From a virus, in the IMG/VR virus record IMGVR_UViG_3300028734_000012, positions 96,001-160,000 of that record: DNA of 64,000 nucleotides, one strand, 5' to 3'. Positions 1 through 60,896 of this stretch are shown here, piece by piece (the first letter of the stretch is position 1; the number at the start of each line of letters is the position of its first letter). A model generated the notes under the pieces. That model saw only the letters and a list, made by a program, of their open reading frames with translations, was not told where the DNA came from and did no database searches. The position numbers were made by a program, and so were the translations under genes.

Positions 1-2
1 CT

Positions 3-668
3 GAAAAAGAAAAGGCAAACGAAGCTGAAAAAGCTAAAATAGCTAAAGAAGAAGAAGACAAAAAGGCAAAAATGAGCGCAGACGAAGCTGAAAGTAAGGC
101 AGAAAAAGCTAAGGAGTTAGCAGATAAAGATGCAGAAGCTAAAGAAGCAGAAGCTAAAAAAGCAAAGATGAGCGAAGATGCTGAAATGAGTGCTAAAGCT
201 GATAAAGCTAAAGCCGATAAAGAAGCCGCTGATAAAGCTAAAGCTGATAAAGAAAAAGAAGACAAAGAAGCTAAAATGAGCGCAGATGAAAAGTTCGAAG
301 CTATGTCAGCAGAGAACGCTAAACTAAAAGAAGAAAATAAAGCTTATATGTGTCAAATTGAAACTATGTCTGATTATGCAGACTTAAAGAAATTTCAAGT
401 AGATGCAGAAGAGAAATTAAAACAAGAGAAAGAGATGTCTGCAATCACTAAAGTAATGTCAGATATTGAAAATCGTGGAATCACTATGAGTGAATCCGAA
501 AAGACTGAAATGCAGTCTAAAATTAAGGAATTTTCCTCTATTGAATCTTGGAGCAATTATGTAAAAGCACAGGTATTTGATAGGGCTGAAAATATAGATG
601 GTATCGTAAAGATAGGTCTCCCATTCGAATCTCAAAGAAAAACAAATAGTATTTGGGATACAATATAA
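3..668 (+). CDS. Capsid scaffold / prohead protease C-terminal region (5'-truncated by window edge)
   Basis: Frame is open from position 3 (upstream of Met 72); K/E/A-rich coiled coil with recurring Met-Ser motifs; directly upstream of the capsid genes. Confidence 0.65.
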   Translation, partial: EKEKANEAEKAKIAKEEEDKKAKMSADEAESKAEKAKELADKDAEAKEAEAKKAKMSEDAEMSAKADKAKADKEAADKAKADKEKEDKEAKMSADEKFEAMSAENAKLKEENKAYMCQIETMSDYADLKKFQVDAEEKLKQEKEMSAITKVMSDIENRGITMSESEKTEMQSKIKEFSSIESWSNYVKAQVFDRAENIDGIVKIGLPFESQRKTNSIWDTI

Positions 669-698
669 TTTTTTATTTTAGAAAGGATGAATTGAATT

Positions 699-1235
699 AT
701 GGCTACAAATGTTGTTATAAAAACTCGCGTACAAGCAATGAACATCGATACATACAACAGAACTGCTGTTGCTACTTCTGATGTTGAAAACGGTTCTGTA
801 TTTAATCTTAACTCTTACTCTACAAATCTTGGAGAAGGCACAGTTTGGAATGCTACAGAAGCAGGTTCAGTATCTGCTAAAGGACTATGGATGGCTACAA
901 GCCCAGAAGTTGTTATCACTAGAGACCTAATGGGTAGTGAATATAAAGGCTTAACACCAGACCCAAGAGCATTTATTAATTTCACTGGTCGCATGATTGA
1001 TGCTACATTCCTTGCTCCACATGACATTATCGAAATGACTTGTGCTGGAATTGCTGATGTCGCAACTCTTGGTTTCCTTACACCAGCCGCAACTGGATTT
1101 AAACTTGTTGCATCTGCAACAGCAGGGACTGGTTTCACATTAAAGAAAGTTGGAACAAGTATTCTACATATTGGTTCAAGCAATCTAGTTAAAACTCCCG
1201 TAACTACTTACAAATTTGAAGTAGTTAACAACTAA
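699..1235 (+). CDS. Putative head decoration / minor capsid protein
   Basis: 178 aa, SD AAAGGA; lies between scaffold and major capsid genes; codon usage like other highly expressed structural genes. Confidence 0.55.
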   Translation: MATNVVIKTRVQAMNIDTYNRTAVATSDVENGSVFNLNSYSTNLGEGTVWNATEAGSVSAKGLWMATSPEVVITRDLMGSEYKGLTPDPRAFINFTGRMIDATFLAPHDIIEMTCAGIADVATLGFLTPAATGFKLVASATAGTGFTLKKVGTSILHIGSSNLVKTPVTTYKFEVVNN

Positions 1236-1261
1236 TTTAAGAAAGGTGTTGAATAAAAATT

Positions 1262-2359
1262 ATGACTAAACAATTATGTTTCTCTGCCAACCGTAATACA
1301 GTCGAGGTTGCATTTAGAGATTATATGAACACATATTTTTCTGAAACAGAAAAAAGAACTGGCTTCGCATACGACAACTCAATTTCATTTGCTGATAAAG
1401 AAAAGAAAATGAATAAGTTAATGAACGCTGAAATCTATAGACTTGCTAACATTGAGTTCGCAGAAAATTCAATGGTATCAAACGAAATGTGGGGTCAACA
1501 TCCTCTAATTAAGTGGGCTTCTTTTGCAGTTGCAAACTCACTAATTGATATGATTATCCCAGACGTTCTTGATAAAAGCATCGGCGCTTACACAGAACAA
1601 AGAAATGGTATGATTGGCGATAGCTTTGCTTTCGACGTTGAACCTAATGATTTGTTCTATGTATCTAAAGCTGGTAGAGACCAAAGAACAGTAGAGTTCC
1701 AAAGACAATACAACGGTCAAGTAACTGTTATGCCAGAAAATCGTGCTATTGCCGTTTCTGTTAACTTTTACAAAGTCCTTTGTGGTCTTGATTCTCTAGC
1801 TAAGTTTGTAATGAAAGCTATCCTTAGTGTAGAAGCTCAAATTACAAAAGAAGTTTACAAAGCATTTGATACTGCAATGGGCGACCTTCCTTCAACTCCT
1901 GTAGATGGTAATCTTAAAGTTGCAGGATTTACTAAGAAAGAAGCAGTAAGACTTGCCGCTACTGTTACAGCATATAATGGCGGTGCTAAAGCTGTATTCT
2001 TAGGTACTCCAACAGCATTAGCAAATATTCTTCCAGATGATGCAAACTACAGATACGATATCGATAGTGAATTTGTAAAAGTTGGTTATGTCAGAACTCT
2101 AGCAGGATATGACACAATGGTATTACCACAAATCGCTGATTGGTCTAATCCTTATAAATTAGCAATTGACGACGATAGAATCTATGTAATTTCTCCTTCA
2201 AGCCAAAAACTTGTAAAGCTTTGCTATGAAGGTTCAAGCACAAATAGTACTATCGCGGCTCAACAAACTGCTAACTTAACAGAATCTACAACTATCAACA
2301 AATCATATGGTATCGCAGTTGCTACAAATGCTATTGCAGGAATTATCACACTAGCTTAA
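1262..2359 (+). CDS. Major capsid protein (HK97-fold, inferred)
   Basis: 365 aa; position after scaffold/decoration genes; followed by a strong hairpin; C-terminal YGIAV..NAIAGIITL resembles MCP ends. Confidence 0.75.
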   Translation: MTKQLCFSANRNTVEVAFRDYMNTYFSETEKRTGFAYDNSISFADKEKKMNKLMNAEIYRLANIEFAENSMVSNEMWGQHPLIKWASFAVANSLIDMIIPDVLDKSIGAYTEQRNGMIGDSFAFDVEPNDLFYVSKAGRDQRTVEFQRQYNGQVTVMPENRAIAVSVNFYKVLCGLDSLAKFVMKAILSVEAQITKEVYKAFDTAMGDLPSTPVDGNLKVAGFTKKEAVRLAATVTAYNGGAKAVFLGTPTALANILPDDANYRYDIDSEFVKVGYVRTLAGYDTMVLPQIADWSNPYKLAIDDDRIYVISPSSQKLVKLCYEGSSTNSTIAAQQTANLTESTTINKSYGIAVATNAIAGIITLA

Positions 2360-2404
2360 TCGTACACGTTCGTACATAATATATTTATACATAAATATTA
2401 GGAT

Positions 2405-2437
2405 AGAAGGGATACCGACTTAATAGGTATCCCTCTA
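2405..2437 (+). terminator. Stem-loop after the major capsid gene
   Basis: AGGGATACC..GGTATCCCT inverted repeat; no clear U tract. Confidence 0.5.
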
Positions 2438-2469
2438 CCAATATTTGAATTGAAAGGGGATTTATTAAT

Positions 2470-3174
2470 ATGCCTAAGATTGCAAATGCCGCTTCTACAA
2501 TTGTAGAAGAAAAGGTTACTAACGTTGCTGAACCAACGATTGGCAACGCAGAATATCAACAAATATTACAAGACAATGCTGAACTAAAAGCTAAACTAGA
2601 GGTTTTAATTTCTAGTATGCAGAAATCAGATAATATAGCTAGTAAAATCGAAAGTCCTAAATTAGCAGAGGTAGAAGTCGAAAATGAAGGATTTGTAGAA
2701 CCATCCGCTAATAAACAAATTAAAGTAATGTCTTTATACTACGGTTCTTTAAATTTACCAACAGAAGAAGGTGGCTCGGCAAAATTGTCCTTTAATCAAT
2801 ATGGACAAGTTAAGTCAGTCTCTTATTCTAAGCTAAATGATATTGTTAATACTAATAAGAAATTTGTCGATAATGGATTGTTTTATGTTCTTGATAAAAA
2901 TGCCGTATACTTCTTAGAACTTACGGAATTATATAAGACTATTTTAAACAAAGATGCTATTGATAAAATTTGTGATTTTAGCGCTAATACTATTGAATCT
3001 ATGTTAGATAATATTACTGATTCACAAAAAGAAATAATTATTCATAATATTAGTATGAGTATATATGGTGGACAGGCTGTTGACTATAATAAAGTTGATA
3101 TTATTAGTAGAAAATTCGGAGTTGATATTAAAGCAAAAGCAGAAGGAATGAAAAGTTTTGATGTAAAAGCATAA
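2470..3174 (+). CDS. Hypothetical head-module protein
   Basis: 234-aa ORF with SD AAGGGG, in structural operon. Confidence 0.6.
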   Translation: MPKIANAASTIVEEKVTNVAEPTIGNAEYQQILQDNAELKAKLEVLISSMQKSDNIASKIESPKLAEVEVENEGFVEPSANKQIKVMSLYYGSLNLPTEEGGSAKLSFNQYGQVKSVSYSKLNDIVNTNKKFVDNGLFYVLDKNAVYFLELTELYKTILNKDAIDKICDFSANTIESMLDNITDSQKEIIIHNISMSIYGGQAVDYNKVDIISRKFGVDIKAKAEGMKSFDVKA

Positions 3175-3211
3175 TATTAACTTTATAATATAAAAAAGAG
3201 GGGGTGGGAGT

Positions 3212-3676
3212 ATGGAAACGGTAACTTCATTTGAGACTTTGTATAAATTATTTTTAGGGTCTATTCAAGATTATAAAATCAAAAAGATATTTCAAGAAGA
3301 TGTTGCAATTGCAGAAGATATGATGGATACATTTTTAATTAAAAGTATCCCTCGGTTCTCTTCTGATTGTATCAAGGATATTTCAAATGTAGACCTAGTT
3401 AGTAGAACATTTTTGGTGTCTTTAGATATTGATGAACTCAATATCATGGCTGATTCTATGGTTTTGACTTGGATGAATTGGTCGATAAATAATATTACAC
3501 AAATGGAGATAACTCTAAATGATAACGATTATAAACATTACAGCGAAGAGCGTAATTTAAGTGGTAAGAATAATCATAGAAATATGCTAAGAGAAATATT
3601 AGACCAAGATATTATAGTATATGGATTAAAACATACCCCTTTCAAAGAATGGGCGGCTGGAAATTATGGAGTATAA
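3212..3676 (+). CDS. Putative head-tail adaptor/connector
   Basis: 154 aa, helical; position after capsid genes; SD GGGAG. Confidence 0.5.
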   Translation: METVTSFETLYKLFLGSIQDYKIKKIFQEDVAIAEDMMDTFLIKSIPRFSSDCIKDISNVDLVSRTFLVSLDIDELNIMADSMVLTWMNWSINNITQMEITLNDNDYKHYSEERNLSGKNNHRNMLREILDQDIIVYGLKHTPFKEWAAGNYGV

Positions 3677-3989
3677 TATTAACAATATTAATATATCTGG
3701 CTCTGATGTAAATGAATACATAATTAAATTGATAAATGAAGTGTTTGCTATACTTCCTATATATGAGGAATGTGAAATAGCTGATGATTTTAAAAGATTT
3801 CACGTATATTTAGAAAGATTAATTATGGAAACAGCAGGTGGATATTTTAATTTAGGAACTAAAGGCTACTTAACATTAACAAACGTTTTAACAGGAGTTA
3901 ATATTAGTACACAGTTAAACCATGCAAATGTCAAATCATTAACGTTTTATTGCATATCAATTCTAAATGCATTAAAGGTGATAGAATGA
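3666..3989 (+). CDS. Hypothetical protein
   Basis: 107 aa; overlaps both neighbours (ATGA overlap at 3986-3989). Confidence 0.55.
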   Translation: MEYNINNINISGSDVNEYIIKLINEVFAILPIYEECEIADDFKRFHVYLERLIMETAGGYFNLGTKGYLTLTNVLTGVNISTQLNHANVKSLTFYCISILNALKVIE

Positions 3990-5233
3990 GTTATTATGAT
4001 ACCTTTTTATCAGTTAATAAATCTCCAAAAGAGTTTTATTTAAACCAAATACAAGAATTAGTAAATGGACAATTTGATAATGCTTCAACAGTTCAAAGTG
4101 ATGTTGAGGAAGAAATTGAGTTTGGTACTTTAAGTTTTGTTCCATGTGAAAGTAGAATTACCAGTCTAATTGATGTAAAAACTGGTAAAAAGAACAATGA
4201 TGATTTTAAAAAAATTCTATTTAGAGATGTTACACACCAACCACCATTAGGTACAAGATACAGATTTGAAGATAATATTTGGATTGCTTATGCAACTGAT
4301 AATATAAAAAGTGCTACATCAAGCGCTTATTTACAAAGATGTAATTGTACAATGAACTCACAGGATAAGTACGGTAATATTCACGAAGAGCCATGCTATG
4401 TAGATTATAATCTGATGGAAACACAATTATTAACTAATATACAATTGGATGTTCCAGCAGGAAGAATCGAAGTAAAATGTCAATTGAACAAATATACAAA
4501 AGATGTTGATGTTAATGCAAGGTTTATTTTTGGGGATGACGTTTATAAACTAAGAAGCAGAAGTAAGCCAAATAGACTAAATACTTTTGATAAAGATTCA
4601 GTCACATTTTTATCATTTTATGCTAATTATGACAATAAAGCAGAAGATGATAATTTTGATTTAACAGTTGCAAATTACAAGACATATAATTATGTGATAT
4701 CTTGCCAATCTAATATTAAGAATACGATTGGGGCTAAAGATACATTAAAATCAACTGTTTATTTAGATGGTATAGAAATTGAAGAAGATGTATTATGGTA
4801 TTCATCTGATGCTAGTATCATTGAAATTAATGAAGTTACTGGCGAATATACGTTAGTTGGTTTAGGTATTTGTAATGTTACATGTAAGCTTAAAAATAAT
4901 ATCATTTTTAACACTTCTATAAAAGTAGAGGTTGTTGATGTTATCATTGATAGTTACCATGATGCCATATTACCTAATATTACATATGTTAAGTTGAATC
5001 AGAAACAAACTTATGAAGTTTTTGAATATAACAATGGTATCCCAACGGACACTACGTTTACAATTAATTCATACGATGTTCCAGATAAAAATTATCATAT
5101 TGATACCACATTAAACGGGTTCTCAATAACTAATTTAAAATCTACAAAAGATGTATTACTAAGAATAGTATGTAAAAATAATAGGACTTCTGAACTTAAT
5201 ACACTTTTAATCGAGTTAGGGGGATTGTTTTAA
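3986..5233 (+). CDS. Head closure/neck protein with C-terminal Ig-like domain
   Basis: Start re-assigned to ATG 3986 (SD AAGGTGA); Big_2-like motif VLWYSSDASIIEINEVTGEYTLVGLG. Confidence 0.55.
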   Translation: MSYYDTFLSVNKSPKEFYLNQIQELVNGQFDNASTVQSDVEEEIEFGTLSFVPCESRITSLIDVKTGKKNNDDFKKILFRDVTHQPPLGTRYRFEDNIWIAYATDNIKSATSSAYLQRCNCTMNSQDKYGNIHEEPCYVDYNLMETQLLTNIQLDVPAGRIEVKCQLNKYTKDVDVNARFIFGDDVYKLRSRSKPNRLNTFDKDSVTFLSFYANYDNKAEDDNFDLTVANYKTYNYVISCQSNIKNTIGAKDTLKSTVYLDGIEIEEDVLWYSSDASIIEINEVTGEYTLVGLGICNVTCKLKNNIIFNTSIKVEVVDVIIDSYHDAILPNITYVKLNQKQTYEVFEYNNGIPTDTTFTINSYDVPDKNYHIDTTLNGFSITNLKSTKDVLLRIVCKNNRTSELNTLLIELGGLF

Positions 5234-5829
5234 TGGCTTATTATGCAGAACTTGGTGATATTATTAATAATGTCATTGCAGAAAAATTGCTAAGAAATCA
5301 AACAATATGTAAAGCTTTAAAATATTATCCTACTGAAAACTCTATTGATTATAACCCTTTAACTCAACCAGACATTTCTGACACAAGGTCTCTTCTTATG
5401 GATAAAATTTTTCCATTACCAAAGATGCCAAATTCAGATACAGAAAAACATGGATATGTTACCGTCACTTTAACTGGTGGAGATTCCGCTTATGATAATC
5501 AAGGATATCGTTATGTTAATTTAGTATTTGATATTATTTTTCATCTTGATACTTGGTGTACACAAGCAGGATATAGACCATATCTAATTGCAGAAGAATT
5601 AGACAAAATGTTTAATAACCAACAAACCGATTTACCAATAGCAAATAGACCGCTTGATTTAGGATTTAAACAAAGAGACTATTCTAACTATTTTTATGGT
5701 TTACAATTAGTGTATCAACTTAGTTTAGATAGTAATGTGGGTTGTGGGACTACCCCTGTGGCATCACAAGTAGATATTACAATGAATCAAAGACCTAGTT
5801 TTTTACCAAAGAATCTAAATCTTAGATAG
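5233..5829 (+). CDS. Putative tail terminator/completion protein
   Basis: TAATG coupling; L.FDIIFH..W and RPY.IAEELDKMFN motifs; two genes before the major tail protein. Confidence 0.5.
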   Translation: MAYYAELGDIINNVIAEKLLRNQTICKALKYYPTENSIDYNPLTQPDISDTRSLLMDKIFPLPKMPNSDTEKHGYVTVTLTGGDSAYDNQGYRYVNLVFDIIFHLDTWCTQAGYRPYLIAEELDKMFNNQQTDLPIANRPLDLGFKQRDYSNYFYGLQLVYQLSLDSNVGCGTTPVASQVDITMNQRPSFLPKNLNLR

Positions 5830-5839
5830 GGGTGATGTT

Positions 5840-6724
5840 ATGGAAATGAGTACGTTACGTTTATTATATGGAGATGGGTTAAAATTAATTAATGGTATTG
5901 AGGTTAAACACCCTAAATTATCTGATATCGTAGAGTTAGAAAGAAAATGTATAAGTGATAATGATTATAATTATAATGATTACATAAAAGCATTAACTTC
6001 AACACGAATAGATGTTGCAGATATTTTATGGTGTGAAATGCAAATCTGGTACGAGGATATAAAAACTGAATGGGAATTTTTTATACAGAAATGTATATTA
6101 AACAAAAAGGTTATGAATATATTTTTTGAAGCTGAACTCGATGGGAAGATTATAAAAGTTGAAAAACAGGCTGTTGCAATAGATAAAATATACAGAGATG
6201 CTTTAAATTTCTTCCTTGGATTAAGCGGAGAATATGTACTATTAGATATTAATGAAACCGATATACCACAAATTGTACTTTGTAATGTACAAGAAAACAA
6301 ACTTAAACAATATATTGTTAGCAAAGATAATGTAAAATTTACAGAAAACCTATACGACACTACCCTTAAATATTTGAAAAAAATAAATTGGATAACTAGT
6401 GAATATATGTTCTTAAAAGGTGGAAGTAAAGGTGCTAAACAATATATTTTAAAGAATCAATATAAATCAAGAACAAAAATTAAAGTAGATAAATATTATG
6501 TTTCATTAGATAGTATTATCTCGTCTGAAATTGCAAAGGGTACAAGGTATCAAGACATAAAAGAGTATCCAATATATTTAATCTATGATTTATATTACAG
6601 AAATGTAAAGATAAATGAATGGCAAAATACAATGGATGCATTACATAATGGATGTATAGATACCGAAAAGAACCCAATTGAATGGGAAAAAGTCAATTGG
6701 GGGAGCGTTATAAACTTAGATTAG
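5840..6724 (+). CDS. Hypothetical tail-module protein
   Basis: 294-aa ORF with SD GGGGTGA. Confidence 0.55.
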   Translation: MEMSTLRLLYGDGLKLINGIEVKHPKLSDIVELERKCISDNDYNYNDYIKALTSTRIDVADILWCEMQIWYEDIKTEWEFFIQKCILNKKVMNIFFEAELDGKIIKVEKQAVAIDKIYRDALNFFLGLSGEYVLLDINETDIPQIVLCNVQENKLKQYIVSKDNVKFTENLYDTTLKYLKKINWITSEYMFLKGGSKGAKQYILKNQYKSRTKIKVDKYYVSLDSIISSEIAKGTRYQDIKEYPIYLIYDLYYRNVKINEWQNTMDALHNGCIDTEKNPIEWEKVNWGSVINLD

Positions 6725-6774
6725 TAAGCGAAAGCTTTACTATATATAAATTATTTATGAGGAGGAATTTGATT

Positions 6775-7605
6775 ATGGCTATTCTAGCTACACCTAAAAA
6801 GTTTGCTATGCAACAAGTTTTTGAAATTTTACTAAGAAAACCTGTCGATAAAAGCATTATCGCTTATTTAACAGATACTAAGACTTCTGGACTTGAGAAT
6901 ACTATCACAATGGTTTATCCTACTGGTGGTAGAGGTAATACATACATCGGAACTGGTTTTGGACATTCAAGAAAGGCTACTTTAAAAGTAACCCTTGCAA
7001 CTTGGAATACCGATGTTCTTGCTGTACAGAACGGTACAGAAGTATTTACTGGTAGTACCAATATTACTTGGTATGACACAATTCAAGGCGGTACAGGCAA
7101 AACTTTTGCCACTAAATTTACTGCTATTGGAGCAACTGGTTCAGAAATTGGTAGTTTGTATAAACTAGAACAAGATGGTACATACGGTACTAAGTTCACA
7201 CAAGCTACTACTGCAACTACTGGCACATTCACATATGCATCTGCTACTAAGGCTATTTCATTTGCAACTGCTGATGCTACTGCTCCTGCTGTTGGGGATT
7301 ATATCGCTTGCGCATATACCTATAAAACATCTGCAACTGCTCAAAAGATTACAGTTAATGCGGATGGTATTCCACCAACAGTTCTTGTTTCAGCTTATGG
7401 TGTTGCAAGAGATACATGTACTGGTGAATTGTTCCCTGCTGTTGTAGAAGGACAAGCACAAGTAGATGGTAACTGGAACTTCGATTTATCAGCAAGTGGA
7501 GAACCAGTTGTTCAGAACTTAACAATGGACTTTGTAAGAGGATGTACAACAAAAGAATTATATTCATTTACAATTTTCGAAGATTCTAGCGAAGCAACTG
7601 TTTAA
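6775..7605 (+). CDS. Major tail (tube) protein
   Basis: Start re-assigned to ATG 6775 after SD GAGGAGG; Thr/Ala/Gly-rich beta protein; followed by a strong terminator. Confidence 0.7.
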   Translation: MAILATPKKFAMQQVFEILLRKPVDKSIIAYLTDTKTSGLENTITMVYPTGGRGNTYIGTGFGHSRKATLKVTLATWNTDVLAVQNGTEVFTGSTNITWYDTIQGGTGKTFATKFTAIGATGSEIGSLYKLEQDGTYGTKFTQATTATTGTFTYASATKAISFATADATAPAVGDYIACAYTYKTSATAQKITVNADGIPPTVLVSAYGVARDTCTGELFPAVVEGQAQVDGNWNFDLSASGEPVVQNLTMDFVRGCTTKELYSFTIFEDSSEATV

Positions 7606-54910: not shown

Positions 54911-57900
54911 TTATATGTGATGAAAACTGCCTATATTCCAATATCCTTTATTCTGAAACACATGCTCTGCAAAGATTATATCATATTTTTCAATTGGGCT
55001 TTCTTCATATAATTCCGATGCCATATAAAACGCTCCATGCTTTCCAGAACCAATTGATTGTGTTCTAAGACTATATTTCCATACTTTGTTAGGAACTTTG
55101 CTAAACCTATCTATAATAGGTCTAATTTCTAATACAACTAGTTTTCTACGTTCTTTTTCTTCCTGTGAGTGTGAACATAGATTAATATAGCCTAGAAACT
55201 CCAATTGTGTTAAAATTTTGTCTTTGTATGAAAAATCTTGTATAGTTTGACAGTTTAAAAAGTCGTCGCATTCCTGCAATATATTTCTCACATTCAATTT
55301 TGTAAAAGATTTCTCGCTTTCTGTTGAGTTTCGTAGTACAATATTATATAGAGTTTGTTTACTTTCGAGTTTAGTCTTGCTAATTGTTTTAGAATTTCCC
55401 TGTTTAAAGAAGTCAAACATATCAACAATTCTAAGTAATTTCATAGAATTTCCAAACTCTTCAAAGAAATCTAATTTAATTAGAATTTCAAGCTGTCTTG
55501 AATTAATTTGGATATCTCTAATATCATACAATAAATCAGTAAAGGTATTATATGTATTATTTCTTAAACTATACAAATCATCAGCACAATTTTTATTTAA
55601 AAACTTAATTGATTGCATACCTTTATAAATTGATTTAGTGCTTATGTCAAATGAGTATTCAGATTTACCATATCTAAATTTAGGCTCAACAATCTCTATC
55701 TTTAATAATTTAGACAATTCTGTCCCATTTGAAATGTCTTCTTCTGTTTCAGAACAATTTAAAAATGCAGTTAAAAACTCATAAGGGTGATAATAACGTA
55801 AGTATGCACATAGATATCCTAACATGCAATATGCGATACTATGGTTAAGTCCAAACATATATGAACTTGCATCTTCGATTATCTTTAGGAATATCTTTGC
55901 TTCTTCTTCTGATATCTCTCTAGGCTTATCAGAGACCTTGCAATAACCCTCTAAGATGTTTGGTAGCGCTTTCTGTAATCTATCAGCATCCTTACGACCA
56001 ATGGCACGACGGGTATTATCAGCTTCACTACCAGATAGTCCACAAATATCAGTTAAGAATTTAATTACATCTTCTTGATAGACCAGATAACCTAGATTGT
56101 CCTCTAACAATTTATCGATAATTGGTGATGGATTATGGTTAATTATATGTTTACTTAGACTATCTCTGTACGATGCACCAGATGGACGAATCATAGCCGT
56201 AACAAGTGACATATCCTCAATAGATTTTGCATCAAATTTCTTTAATGTATTAAATGCAAAAGCAGATTCAAATTGAAATATTGCAGTATTAGATTTTTTC
56301 ATATCAGCCCATACGTTTTCATCATTCCAATCAATCTGATATGATAACGGATATTTTTCACCAATATATTCATAAGTCTTTTTAATGATACCGACATTCT
56401 TTAATCCTAAAATATCATATTTAGCAAGTCCAGTTTCATGAACGCATTCCATATCTAACTGCATAATTACATTCCCATCATTTACGAAAGTACCATAATT
56501 ATCAGCTAATGTAATTGGAGAAATTACAATTCCTGCTGGATGTTGGCTTTGAGATATAATAGTTCCTAACATTCCTTCAAAGTAATAAAATATCTTAGGA
56601 TACTTTTCTCTGCATTTATCAGCGTTAGCTTCGTATTCTGTTTTTATCGTTTTCATAATTGCTAAATTATATGGGCTTTCACTTTTATTTAACTGTGGAT
56701 TAGCCTTACACCATAAGAAGTCTAACGCTCTCCCTATATCATCAATTGTACCTTTGTCTGATATAGTTCCCATTGCTAAAACAAATGCTGTCTTTGGCTG
56801 TCCAAAATGAGTAATGATATGTTCGTATATCTTAGCCCTATCATCTTTAAACACATCAATATCGATATCTCCGATTTCCTTACGGTCTTCATTACAAAAC
56901 CTAGAAAATACAGTTTTCCATCTAATAGGATTTAAATCAGTTACATCGGTAACATATGCGACACAGCTACCGCCACAACTTCCTCTGCTGAACCCAATAG
57001 GGATACCGTTCTCTTTACACCAACAAAGAATTTCTGACATTGAAAGCATAAACCCTAACATATCAACCTTTTTAAATACCCTTATTTCTTCTTGAATATT
57101 TATTTCAAACTTTTCTTTTTGGCTCATTGGGATTATGCCATTTTTAAGTTTTTCTTTAAACATTTTATCGATACGCTTAATAAATACTTCTTCATCATTA
57201 TCGTACATTCTAGGATATTTTATTGATGCATCCAGTACAATTTGTTCTATAGTACTTGCCATAACATTTGTATTTTCTATTGCTTCTAATATTATATCCA
57301 TTGGTAATGAGTTTTGCACTATAAAGCTATGTACAAGTTCATCATATGTCTTATATGTTAAATCATAATCGTCTTCATTGCTAAACTCAATTTTTTTAGA
57401 TTTCTGTAATATACTACGGCATTCTGCTTTATAGCTATTTAAACTATGTGTATCTGTTCCTGCTATTAATGGCTTATTATATTTCTTTGATAAGTCATAT
57501 AGGCTCTTGTTAAAACTAATCTGGTCTTCTGTATTATGGTACTGAATTTCATAATAATCATAATGTTTTAACAGTTTATCAAAGTAATCTTTAGTCTCAT
57601 CTATTTGAGACTGGTTGAAAAGAATTTCATTTCTTATTTTTAATCCGTCAAAATTAGGGTCTTCTTCTTTGGCTTCAAGAAGTTGGCTTTGTAACGATTC
57701 TATTTTTTCTTTAATTGGGGTTATGGTATTCATTAACTTATTTAATGGAGAAGCTAAACATGCTGAAATTTTTACGATATTATCAGATACACCTAAAAAT
57801 TCATCAAAAGTTAATCTTGGTTTATAGTAAAAATGGTCTGGTTGAGTAGCTAGTCCAACTAAAGTATTTAGTTCCTTTAATCCCTCAAAGTTCTTTGCTA

Positions 57901-58204
57901 ATAAAACTGTGTGATAATTATCTCTAACTTTATATGGTTCATCTTCATTAGTGCTATCAAAGTTATCATGAAATAATTTTTCAGTTAAATACACTTCACA
58001 ACCATGAATATATTTAATTCCATTCTTTTCACAGTACATCTTTTTGGCAACCCAATTGTAGATATTACCTTAACCATGTTCAGTAGAAGCAATTGCCTTT
58101 TGCCCCAACTGAACACATCTGTCCACATAATCAGTAAATTTAGTACAGCTATCCAATAAAGAATAATCTGAATGCGAGTGATAAACTACATAATTATCTT
58201 TCAA
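54911..58204 (-). CDS. dnaE: DNA polymerase III alpha subunit (DnaE-type), with in-frame TAA at codon 45 flanked by GGT codons
   Basis: TTG 58204 with SD AAAGGAG encodes YHSHSDYSLLD...ASTEHG*GNIYNW in frame with the 1042-aa ORF; RGS, GDIDID, HPAG, KYDILGL, YQE, FGLNHS.AY. Confidence 0.88.
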
Positions 58205-58904
58205 TAGAATCATCTCCTTTATAATTAAATTCTCCGAACAGTTCAATTTCTTTATCTTTTCTTGCCTTAATTGCTTTTTCTATAGTATCAAAACTTCCTA
58301 TATTAATATTTTTGTAATTATACATAATCCTTGCTATATATTGATTACCAATTTGCGCTATACCTTTATATCCACTAGTGTTATTGCTATTTATTCCTCT
58401 ATTTATACCATTAGTTGATTTATTAGCTAAACGTAAATTATTCCTTCTGTTATCATTTTTATTTGTATTTTTATGGTCAATTATTATATTAGAATCATTA
58501 ATATCTAATATAACTCGATGTAAACGATAAGAAGAATTATGTTCATTTTTTTGACTACTTATAATATAATTTTGGTCATTTTCTAGCCATGTAAAGTCTT
58601 TGATTTTATCATAATCAACTAAATCAAAATAAAAGTTTTTATCAGTATTTGTAGTCCATCCTATTCCATATTCATTAGTTAAATCATATTTATTATATTT
58701 TCGTTTTGCTTTAGAAGTCATTTCTTTATGTAAACATCCACAAGATTGTGTATTCATTTTCTTTAAATTAGAACCTCTAACTATAATATCGTTTCCACAA
58801 TCACAATGACATAACCACCTAGTTTCCCCATTACCTACTACATCATATTTACTGATAACCAATAATTTACCAAAAACTTTATTAGTTAAATCAACCCTAA
58901 CCAT
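58194..58904 (-). CDS. Free-standing HNH-AP2 homing endonuclease
   Basis: DLT...FGKL..W.C.CDCG..SCGC; LHR...IDHKN....DNRRNNLR; NNTSGYKG...ARI......GSF AP2-like tail; overlaps the dnaE start. Confidence 0.88.
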   Translation of the reverse strand: MVRVDLTNKVFGKLLVISKYDVVGNGETRWLCHCDCGNDIIVRGSNLKKMNTQSCGCLHKEMTSKAKRKYNKYDLTNEYGIGWTTNTDKNFYFDLVDYDKIKDFTWLENDQNYIISSQKNEHNSSYRLHRVILDINDSNIIIDHKNTNKNDNRRNNLRLANKSTNGINRGINSNNTSGYKGIAQIGNQYIARIMYNYKNINIGSFDTIEKAIKARKDKEIELFGEFNYKGDDSIER

Positions 58905-58910
58905 TTATTT

Positions 58911-60896
58911 TTAATATTCACCGCATTCACTTTCATTTAAATTATCGCATTCTAATTTTCTTCTCCCAACTAGTATCCCATTGCTACCAAATTTAGTGGA
59001 AGAGTATTTAATTGAGCCATTATCCCAATTATATTTCTTATAAATATCATCACTACTACCATATAATCTACGGGTAGCTTTATCGTATCTTAGCCCCATA
59101 CGATAGCCCTTTTCCCCTAATGTTCTGTCTTTAAATACTGTGAATTGTCTATCAAAGTTTTCTTGTAATAATTTTTTATCATATGTCTGTTCTAGCCCGT
59201 AAATTCTATCAGCCATATTTACAATATTAGAAGTTCCTAAGATATCATACTCATTTAAAGGTGTTCCAACTTGTGGTTTTCTTGGATGTGCTACTAAGTG
59301 AATTGTGCAACTATTTCTCTTTGCAAAGTGAATCAATTCATTCATAAATTCTACTTGAACAGCCGTCAAATCTGCATCAGCAATACCCTTAAAATTTAGA
59401 CACAACCAATTGTCTAAAACAAATACTCTTGTACCTCTTTTCTTATACATATCTTTCATTCTGCTAAAAACATCTAATGGGCTTGTTAGTAATAAATTAT
59501 CGTATACAAACATTCTGTTCTTGTAGGTCTCTTTAATCTTCTCAACTGCCTGTGTAGTAGGCTTATAATACTTAAATCCGTTAGGATTAGTGAACTCTAT
59601 AACGTGGTCTCTTCCTGCCGCCTGTGATAGTATCCAATTTAACATCTGTGATGTAGTGCTTTCTGCATTAAACCAGAATACTGATTCTCCTTTATCTACT
59701 GCATCAAGCACACAAGATTGTGCAATTAGTGTGGTCTTTCCTACACCACTGTAAGCCGTCCAAATATTCATCGTACCATCTATGTAGCCATAAATCTTAG
59801 AATCTAAATCACGTAGTCCTGTTGATAAGTAATGGGTCTTTTCAATATCAAATTCTTCTACTGTTGTTAGGTCTACGATATTTTCAAGAGGAACTTCTTC
59901 TGCGTTATTAATTAATTGGAGTATGTCACCTTTACCACAACTTAATAAAATATTATTTGCATCTGTTTTTCTAATGAATACATTCTCGCTAAATGTTTGA
60001 TAGTATGCTTCGACTTTATCTTCTTGTTCAACTGTTGGCTTAATAACTTTACAACGATATTCACCCAAACGATTAATGGTATTTTTTAATCCTTCTTGCC
60101 CTGCTGAATCATTATCAAACCATAATATAATTTCTTTAAAATTTTCAAGGAAATCATAGTTAAATTCAATCCATCCTAAATCATTTGCACCACCGTTAAT
60201 TGAACATACATTAGAATATCCCGCTTCAACACAAGCTAAAGTATCTTGATATCCCTCTGTAATTACAAGTGGTTTTGTAATATCTACTTTATTACTATTA
60301 TATAAGATAGGACACATAGATACTTTTGGTTGCCACCACATCTTCATTTCTCCATGTTTAATAGCATGTGATGGTCTATATTTAACTGCTAGTAATGTAT
60401 TGTCTAAGTCTCTAAGTTCATATACTATATTACCATGAACATCCTGTTTAACATCCATGTAATCAAGCGTTGCCTTTGATATACCACGCTTTGCCAGATA
60501 GTCTTCTACTTGTGACCTATCTGTATTTGTCTCTTCCCGTGGATAAATATAGCCTTTAAAATAATCCTTTCTATCTTTTACACTTTGACCATAATCTTTA
60601 ACATCATAGCCCATATCAAGTTCTTCAAATAATCTTTTTAAAGCTTTCTTATAAGTACCTTCTAATGTAGTATATAAATCTAAAATACCAAAGTTCTTAC
60701 CACATCCGAAACAGTGGAAATAATGCTCTTTTGTATTCCAAGAAAAACTAGGTGTAGATTCATGATGAAAAGGGCAACACCCTTTTAAATTTGCTTCATC
60801 CCATTGTTCGAGATTCAATTCCTTATTAATGATAAAAGCCGCATTATCGCCTAGCTTGTCTTTCGCTTCTTGAATTTTCTCAAACAAATCTGTCAA
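58911..60896 (-). CDS. Primase-helicase (CHC2 Zn finger, TOPRIM, DnaB/SF4 helicase)
   Basis: CPFH.E.TPS..CFGC; ITEGYQD, FDNDSAG; AYSGVGKTT, VLDN, LVAHPRK. Confidence 0.9.
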   Translation of the reverse strand: MTDLFEKIQEAKDKLGDNAAFIINKELNLEQWDEANLKGCCPFHHESTPSFSWNTKEHYFHCFGCGKNFGILDLYTTLEGTYKKALKRLFEELDMGYDVKDYGQSVKDRKDYFKGYIYPREETNTDRSQVEDYLAKRGISKATLDYMDVKQDVHGNIVYELRDLDNTLLAVKYRPSHAIKHGEMKMWWQPKVSMCPILYNSNKVDITKPLVITEGYQDTLACVEAGYSNVCSINGGANDLGWIEFNYDFLENFKEIILWFDNDSAGQEGLKNTINRLGEYRCKVIKPTVEQEDKVEAYYQTFSENVFIRKTDANNILLSCGKGDILQLINNAEEVPLENIVDLTTVEEFDIEKTHYLSTGLRDLDSKIYGYIDGTMNIWTAYSGVGKTTLIAQSCVLDAVDKGESVFWFNAESTTSQMLNWILSQAAGRDHVIEFTNPNGFKYYKPTTQAVEKIKETYKNRMFVYDNLLLTSPLDVFSRMKDMYKKRGTRVFVLDNWLCLNFKGIADADLTAVQVEFMNELIHFAKRNSCTIHLVAHPRKPQVGTPLNEYDILGTSNIVNMADRIYGLEQTYDKKLLQENFDRQFTVFKDRTLGEKGYRMGLRYDKATRRLYGSSDDIYKKYNWDNGSIKYSSTKFGSNGILVGRRKLECDNLNESECGEY

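Follow-up and report, generated by a model that had tools for sequence, protein, structure and literature searches.

How is a DNA polymerase made from a gene whose reading frame is closed by a stop codon after 44 codons and then remains open, with the frame unchanged, for another 1052 codons? The question is raised by dnaE on the minus strand of a stretch of 64,000 nucleotides (nt), hereafter the window, which comprises bases 96001-160000 of IMG/VR virus record IMGVR_UViG_3300028734_000012, a 176-kb metagenomic contig of 30% GC with an estimated completeness of 89% (referred to as genome G000). In this gene, a TAA codon is enclosed between two identical Gly codons (minus-strand junction ...ACT GAA CAT GGT TAA GGT AAT ATC TAC), and the frame then continues down to position 54911 of the window. 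We consider it likely, at a rough probability of 0.7, that a single polypeptide is produced from dnaE through a programmed +6 translational hop, in which the ribosome would leave the first Gly codon and resume decoding after the second one. Such a stop-hop had been proposed in a first-pass annotation of the window; it is now supported by five diverged lineages with the arrangement Gly-stop-Gly, and by four lineages in which a gap of 5 or 10 nt puts the rest of the gene out of frame. It is chiefly because of these out-of-frame variants at the same site that we place confidence in the hop.

The gene structure agrees with what the first-pass annotation had described, i.e., a start at TTG 58204 behind the Shine-Dalgarno sequence AAAGGAG, a stop at 58070-58072 and more than 1050 codons beyond it (Table 1). 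Translation could alternatively start from an in-frame ATG at 58213, where protein P0121 begins. Domains follow one another in the order PHP (PF02811), DNA_pol3_alpha (PF07733), finger (PF17657) and HHH_6 (PF14579), as assigned by Pfam. The 44-residue piece before the stop, which had been said to keep the PHP motifs, indeed covers positions 2-38 of the PHP profile, and position 39 is the Asn encoded after the second GGT. Because the profile runs from 38 to 39 across the gap, the extra material amounts to exactly two codons; the uninterrupted DnaE relatives, all of which have (S/T)EHG(N/K/..) without a gap, agree with the profile, and the interruption is thus an insertion of exactly 6 nt, as had been claimed, and not a point nonsense mutation. 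Gene callers open the downstream reading frame at Met 58039, which yields a protein of 1042 amino acids (aa) that misses the first 54 residues, and it is this truncated polymerase that is found in public protein collections. It should be noted that G000 has one dnaE, and that a family-A polymerase (PolA) was not found in a genome-wide search.

Table 1. Features of the interrupted dnaE locus and its surroundings (window coordinates)
Feature	Position	Strand	Basis
Take-off codon GGT (Gly)	58073..58075	-	sequence
In-frame TAA directly 3' of the take-off codon; would occupy the A site	58070..58072	-	sequence
Landing codon GGT (Gly), 6 nt past take-off; decoding would restart at AAT 58066	58067..58069	-	sequence, PHP profile
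dnaE part 1, 44 codons, PHP motifs HxH ... EHG, last codon = take-off Gly	58073..58204	-	Pfam PHP 2-38, E 2.3e-9
dnaE part 2, 1052 codons + stop (remaining PHP, polymerase core, fingers, HhH)	54911..58069	-	open reading frame, Pfam
5' stem-loop, ends 1-2 nt before the take-off codon; outer stem GUGUUCAGU with ACUGAACAU	58076..58116	-	folding
Shine-Dalgarno sequence AAAGGAG of dnaE, 9 nt before TTG 58204	58214..58220	-	sequence
Gene of a free-standing HNH endonuclease (236 aa); 11-nt overlap with the dnaE start	58194..58904	-	open reading frame, PHROG, Pfam
Primase-helicase gene, upstream context	58911..60896	-	Pfam

Contigs of IMG/VR and JGI were searched with degenerate DNA patterns and with the guidance of a profile, which revealed eight further diverged lineages in which dnaE is broken at exactly the site of the window: four by 6 nt (GGY-TAR-GGN), three by 5 nt (GGT-TA-GGN) and one by 10 nt (Table 2). 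Comparison of these junctions makes the 6-nt gap one member of a family of gaps (5, 6 or 10 nt long) that share a single site and are associated with one family of free-standing HNH genes. The take-off codon is GGT in eight of the nine lineages and GGC in the other; a stop codon follows it directly in all nine (TAA in five, TAG in four), and the landing codon is GGN throughout, so that the hop would always run from Gly to Gly. In the +5 lineages, frame 0 reads (S/T)EHG-stop, and the remainder of dnaE (GKPLNWTEKW.. or GKPLGWISKKMY..) lies in the +2 frame from the second Gly codon; in the +10 lineage L136, the remaining 1008 dnaE codons lie in the +1 frame. The conserved residues begin precisely at the landing codon of these out-of-frame junctions, at which no in-frame ATG, GTG or TTG was found, the ATG inside CATGG being always out of frame. 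For example, L095 has no in-frame ATG, GTG or TTG for ~27 codons, and its sole earlier start-like codon is an ATT at about codon 18, and the only nearby ATG of L136 is out of frame. A Gly-to-Gly hop restores the conserved sequence in all nine lineages without the gain or loss of a residue and, as judged from the reading frames, it is the only event that yields (S/T)EHGKPL.. or TEHGNIY.. in the +5 and +10 versions. Ordinary frameshifting by -1 or +1 would have to occur on non-slippery sites and would add residues.

Table 2. The dnaE junction in interrupted lineages, with pairing of the 8-bp outer stem and location of homologues of the window HNH gene
Lineage	Junction	Gap	Paired positions in the outer stem	HNH homologue
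Window	GGT TAA GGT	+6	8/8	
L016 (143-kb genome G002, 38% GC)	GGT TAA GGA	+6	8/8	5.3 kb upstream
L020/L026 (92-kb genome G001, 42% GC)	GGT TAG GGC	+6	8/8	directly upstream of dnaE
L027	GGT TAA GGC	+6	8/8	directly upstream of dnaE
L028	GGC TAA GGC	+6	1/8	directly downstream of dnaE
L095	GGT TA GGA	+5	6/8	none within 6 kb
L134	GGT TA GGA	+5	5/8	fragments only
L097	GGT TA GGT	+5	7/8	fragments only
L136	GGT TAA ACAT GGC	+10	8/8	directly upstream of dnaE
57 distinct uninterrupted relatives			none 8/8, one 7/8, median 3	

When any codon was permitted between the two Gly codons, the pattern search returned seven dnaE matches from six lineages, all of them with a stop codon, along with unrelated proteins, and hence no dnaE with a sense codon at this position. 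A search for the +6 version in the clade of GKPL-type dnaE genes gave no matches. The insert was not seen in any cultured phage: 29 GenBank phage records matched as single unbroken pieces, and the two that were inspected at the site, one of them Bacillus phage vB_BcoS-136, are both uninterrupted. A different phenomenon was encountered in the contig of protein P0007 (L017, 3866-3871), where TAG replaces the Thr/Ser codon in the first PHP motif (HLH*ELS); this is a point change without matched flanking codons, and it was set aside.

The insert does not appear to be an error of assembly, which the first-pass annotation had named as a possible source: an independent Logan assembly (SRR9021243, locus L018) contains the identical GGTTAAGGT, and the truncated 1042-aa open reading frame (ORF) is recorded on 13 contigs. 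A near-identical allele without the insert was not found among 5.8 billion proteins searched, in which the best uninterrupted protein is 59% identical. A scan of genome contigs for prophage or host copies returned nothing but chance matches with TGG, and a search for further small ORFs like the 44-aa piece returned the piece of the window and two ORFs clipped by contig ends. We ruled out a global recoding of stop codons, since TAA is the main stop in the window, terminating 60 of its 86 long ORFs, and dnaE is the sole place in the genome where a stop parts two long in-frame stretches other than mere neighboring genes. A phage suppressor tRNA was ruled out as well. Among the 22 tRNAs of G000, which include tRNA(CUA) and tRNA-Gly(UCC), a reader of UAA was not found, and the anticodon CUA reads UAG; genomes G001 and G002, both 100% complete according to CheckV, encode 3 and 6 tRNAs with no suppressor among them, and use all three stop codons. 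The tRNA with anticodon CUA (93 nt, G000:C1:6145-6237, minus strand, outside the window; labeled 'Pyl' by ARAGORN) resembles an amber suppressor with a long variable arm, yet in-frame TAG codons were not noticed in any gene of the genome.

Both parts of the interrupted gene bear the marks of selection. For G001 compared to L028, the proportions of synonymous (pS) and nonsynonymous (pN) differences are 0.89 and 0.16 in the 44 codons before the stop, and 0.76 and 0.11 past the landing codon; for L016 compared to L027, the ratio of nonsynonymous to synonymous rates (dN/dS) is about 0.04 in the 44 codons. Among interrupted sister lineages, synonymous sites are saturated or nearly so, while the protein sequence is preserved before as well as after the stop, a pattern of purifying selection on both sides. 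Most of the differences among lineages in the ten codons that separate the stop from Met 58039 are synonymous; therefore, this stretch is translated, which rules out Met 58039 as the initiation site of the large part. The distribution of the gap over the tree of phage DnaE proteins is sporadic. In a tree of 88 rows, the eight interrupted rows then known require six changes, all six of them forced by well-supported branches. In P0002, the sister lineage of the window (64-70% identity in the two trees), the insert and the HNH gene are both absent, and the gene order is primase-helicase, then a 79-aa ORF, then dnaE.

Just before the take-off codon, the mRNA is predicted to fold into a stem-loop. 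In the window, the 48 nt preceding the take-off codon have a minimum free energy of -18.7 kcal/mol (z -4.9), and 0 of 200 shuffled sequences were as stable. The 3' arm of this hairpin is the ACU GAA CA of the Thr-Glu-His codons, and the Val-Gln-Leu codons 31 nt upstream provide the 5' arm. A perfect 8-bp outer stem is present in 5 of the 9 interrupted lineages compared to 0 of 57 uninterrupted ones (Fisher p 1.4e-5, with each lineage counted as independent). A compensatory change from U-A to C-G was found in L016 and L027, and covariation measures exceed those of shuffles. The Thr codon required by the stem, ACT, is used by all seven Thr-type interrupted lineages, compared to roughly a fifth of the uninterrupted ones. 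In a model of gene 60 bypassing, refolding of the exiting mRNA drives the forward movement (bioRxiv 10.1101/2024.12.09.627546), and the 3' arm of the dnaE hairpin would be inside the ribosome at take-off, which fits this driver model. We regard the hairpin as a candidate stimulator of the hop, and not as an established one.

The gene that overlaps the dnaE start had been described as an HNH-AP2 endonuclease gene in the first-pass annotation; the HNH assignment and the overlap were borne out, whereas an AP2 domain was not reported by Pfam. The protein matches two 'HNH endonuclease' families, PHROG 374 (E 1.2e-42) and PHROG 99 (E 4e-38), and scores 23.9 bits with Pfam HNH_3, just under the cut-off of 24.8. 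The gene is present in a single copy in the 176-kb G000. Its homologues, which are 36-56% identical, are found beside dnaE or within about 5 kb of it in 6 of the 9 interrupted lineages compared to 7 of the 57 uninterrupted ones (Fisher p 0.001, uncorrected for relatedness), which lends indirect support to the link between the insert and the HNH gene that had been proposed earlier. In G001, a second, partial copy of the HNH N-terminal domain lies just downstream of dnaE (L030, 5135-5344), and L097 has a similar HNH-domain fragment 4.3 kb downstream of the site.

The uninterrupted carriers of the HNH gene are also informative. In (T/S)EHG, Ser takes the place of Thr in every such carrier of the GN-type clade, and also in the cultured Bacillus phage vB_BcoS-136. 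When L068 and L083 are compared to near-identical relatives without the HNH gene (L057-type), ACA is replaced by TCG immediately 5' of GAGCATGG, and the sequences are unrelated upstream, 87-94% identical within about 150 nt of the site and 98-100% identical deeper in dnaE. This local dip in identity looks like a co-conversion tract. Together, the Ser swap and the dip are the signature expected if the endonuclease recognises the DNA that encodes F-T-E-H-G, and suggest that carriers would escape the endonuclease either by a codon swap or by a micro-insert. An endonuclease-immunity role of the gap is plausible, with chances that we put slightly above even. The HNH gene occurs sporadically between conserved genes, with a gradient of divergence beside the insertion, as expected of a homing endonuclease. 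In vB_BcoS-136 (MH884508.1; L137, 969-1505), an HNH homologue with 39% identity overlaps the start of an uninterrupted dnaE that encodes FSEHGS with a TCG Ser codon; this phage could serve as an experimental system for the question of the endonuclease target.

Put together, the proposed chain of events is as follows. The ribosome would decode the take-off GGU (58075-58073) and stall with UAA in the A site; peptidyl-tRNA(Gly) would then unpair, the mRNA would slide by 6 nt and the tRNA would re-pair with the next GGU. Decoding would restart at AAU, giving the canonical ...STEHGNIYNW... with the hop junction peptide AIASTEHGNIYNWVAK, from which a readthrough product would differ by two extra residues. 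The 5' hairpin would refold as its 3' arm leaves the ribosome, probably helping to pull the mRNA forward, as has been proposed for T4 gene 60. In the DNA, the gap most likely disrupts the target of the endonuclease within the highly conserved stretch coding for TEHGN, which would provide immunity with the protein unchanged. It seems reasonably likely to us that the mobile HNH genes and the micro-gaps constitute a family of cassettes, in which a stop-containing insert of 5-10 nt would give immunity and a hairpin-driven Gly-Gly hop would erase the insert in translation.

Several observations weigh against a hop, or against the evidence for it. The hairpin is missing in L028, L095 and L134, and its energy alone separates interrupted from uninterrupted sequences weakly (Mann-Whitney p 0.058). 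The common hairpin and ACT codon could partly reflect a co-transferred patch of DNA instead of selection for hopping, and the lineages are not all independent, so that the Fisher tests for the hairpin and for the HNH gene overstate significance. The landing codon is not in every lineage cognate for a tRNA that reads GGU: the GGA of L016, L095 and L134 matches a GGT take-off codon in only two of the three bases. G001 has an overlapping GGG, out of frame at +5, ahead of its in-frame GGC, the sole case in which the first GGN is not the productive one. Unstimulated synthetic stop-hops have been described as low-level, and the efficiency in the original work was reportedly about 1%. Finally, the window sequence alone is also compatible with readthrough, the downstream ORF being in frame there and in four other lineages.

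Programmed or leaky readthrough, in which a near-cognate or suppressor tRNA would decode UAA and give a DnaE with a two-residue insert (TEHG-X-GN), would leave a product that differs from that of a stop-hop by two residues only (Atkins et al., PMC5009743). G000 does encode a tRNA with anticodon CUA; however, this is the anticodon for UAG and not for UAA, and the interrupted genes of G001 (UAG) and G002 (UAA) are in genomes without any suppressor tRNA. Readthrough cannot account for the +5 and +10 versions of this site, the stop has never been swapped for a sense codon in any lineage found, and no homologue has an insertion between HG and N. Besides, UAA followed by G is a strong terminator context. 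We consider readthrough unlikely. A little less likely still is a gene in pieces, i.e., termination at UAA followed by nearby reinitiation, with non-covalent assembly of a 44-aa peptide and a protein of ~1050 aa in the manner of NrdA split by a homing endonuclease gene or of T4 gp39/gp60. Enzymes split in this way can remain functional, TAAGG resembles a weak Shine-Dalgarno sequence, and the five +6 lineages have ATC, ATT or TTG as the third codon past the stop, as well as a conserved Met 58039. On the other hand, the spacing from AAGG to ATC is just 3-4 nt, the conserved and synonymously changing codons ahead of Met 58039 speak for translation of this stretch, and the +5 and +10 junctions lack an ATG, GTG or TTG in the right frame; moreover, a split at this point would part the metal-binding motifs of one PHP barrel and lose the conserved Gly-Asn.

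The extra bases could instead be removed before translation, either at the RNA level, by a micro-intron or by editing, or through heterogeneity of the DNA, with slippage between GG repeats in part of the population. The gaps are indeed bounded by short GG repeats, and the dnaE of L016 contains an intron-like insertion of ~780 nt, so that splicing elements do occur in such genes. However, we know of no bacterial or phage mechanism that excises 5-10 nt from mRNA, an RNA family was not reported by Rfam for either the window or L016, the insert is retained in every one of the consensus assemblies from many samples, and the protein collection yielded no near-identical allele without it, all of which makes such removal quite improbable. 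As to a broken gene, i.e., a nonsense insertion carried by a phage that is defective or a satellite and uses another polymerase, or an artefact of assembly, it could be said in its favor that the contig is metagenomic and estimated to be 89% complete. Nevertheless, this explanation is strongly disfavored: intact ORFs under selection flank the stop in nine lineages, two of the interrupted genomes are 100% complete, G000 has a single dnaE and no PolA, and independent assemblies are identical.

The programmed hop in dnaE, as proposed here, resembles the T4 gene 60/MobA system in that take-off and landing are on Gly codons, a stop is found 3' of the take-off codon and a stem-loop 5' of it (Manning & Atkins 2022, bioRxiv 10.1101/2022.08.31.505936; PMC5009743). 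The likeness extends to an untranslated insert in a strongly conserved region of an essential replication gene, a sporadic 'hit and run' distribution, an adjoining HNH gene and an insert that is thought to be protective with the protein unchanged. The differences are considerable, however. The gap of T4 gene 60 is 50 nt long, compared to 5-10 nt in dnaE, which leaves no room for a take-off stem-loop or an internal Shine-Dalgarno sequence; a nascent-peptide signal was not identified in dnaE; and the host gene in T4 codes for the large subunit of topoisomerase II and is split by the endonuclease ORF, whereas here it is dnaE and the HNH ORF lies outside it. Comparison of the window HNH protein with T4 mobA gave a best tblastn E of 1.5 (T4 bases 1-7000), which is a weak test as T4 mobA is decayed. 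The locus is thus not the miniature T4 mobA/gene 60 cassette that the first-pass annotation had envisaged, given the other gene, the shorter gap, the unsplit arrangement and the nuclease without BLAST similarity.

The closest mechanistic likeness is to synthetic stop-hops, in which a codon, a stop and a matched codon follow one another, as with +6 in the window and +5 in some relatives, and peptidyl-tRNA re-pairs while the A site is slow to process the stop. It is established for these constructs that 9 nt can specify one amino acid, and no natural stop-hop was known as of a 2016 review (PMC5009743); a later report was not found in full-text literature searches. Synthetic stop-hops are artificial and have low efficiency, whereas the dnaE arrangement is natural, conserved, located in an essential gene and provided with a candidate stimulatory hairpin. 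The mitochondrial 'byp' elements of Magnusiomyces capitatus are translationally bypassed inserts of 27-55 nt, and are similar to the dnaE gaps in that mobile inserts are neutralised by bypassing and imperfect codon matches are tolerated, like GGT to GGA here (PMC5009743). They differ in that they belong to mitochondria, where decoding is relaxed, have longer gaps, occupy numerous sites in each genome and lack an associated homing endonuclease. The HNH gene itself resembles the Mob and Seg genes of intronless homing in T-even phages: it is an ORF between conserved replication genes, absent from close relatives, with a co-conversion-like gradient and a polymorphic presumed target in the carrier. 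Immunity in the T-even systems is usually by substitutions, which corresponds to the Thr-to-Ser route here, and a hopped stop-containing micro-insert would be an unusual second route.

To our knowledge, natural programmed bypassing has been seen in very few systems, i.e., T4 gene 60 with its homologues and yeast mitochondrial byps. If the hop in dnaE is true, it would be the first natural family of short stop-hops, at the short end of a continuum that leads to the bypass of T4 gene 60, and many phage 'pseudogenes' with a stop or a small frameshift would actually be recoded. The series of 5, 6 and 10 nt, located in the sole replicative polymerase gene of several phage lineages, could serve to probe the minimum that a bypass signal needs and, with an element of such small size, to examine the mRNA-refolding 'driver' model; it could also reveal how conflicts over conserved target sites are resolved between homing endonucleases and their hosts. 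There is a consequence for annotation as well: gene callers truncate these dnaE genes (as at Met 58039) or split them, which gives them the appearance of pseudogenes.

Two further features of dnaE genes were noted. The intron-like insertion in the dnaE of L016 is stop-rich and follows residue 748 (L016, about 650-1545, minus strand), between ...SSNYQFG and NHS..GY; Rfam gave no group I or group II match for it. A DnaE family of 1132/1134 aa, which seems to start at (M)SLLDS, was examined as a possible case of interruption and dismissed, as the upstream stop is absent and the apparent start is an unrelated effect of gene calling. Members of this family (L050, 2440-2500) are annotated from an internal TTG, and their N-terminus LSKNYTAYHVHSELS follows a strong Shine-Dalgarno sequence and probably begins with a CTG start codon.

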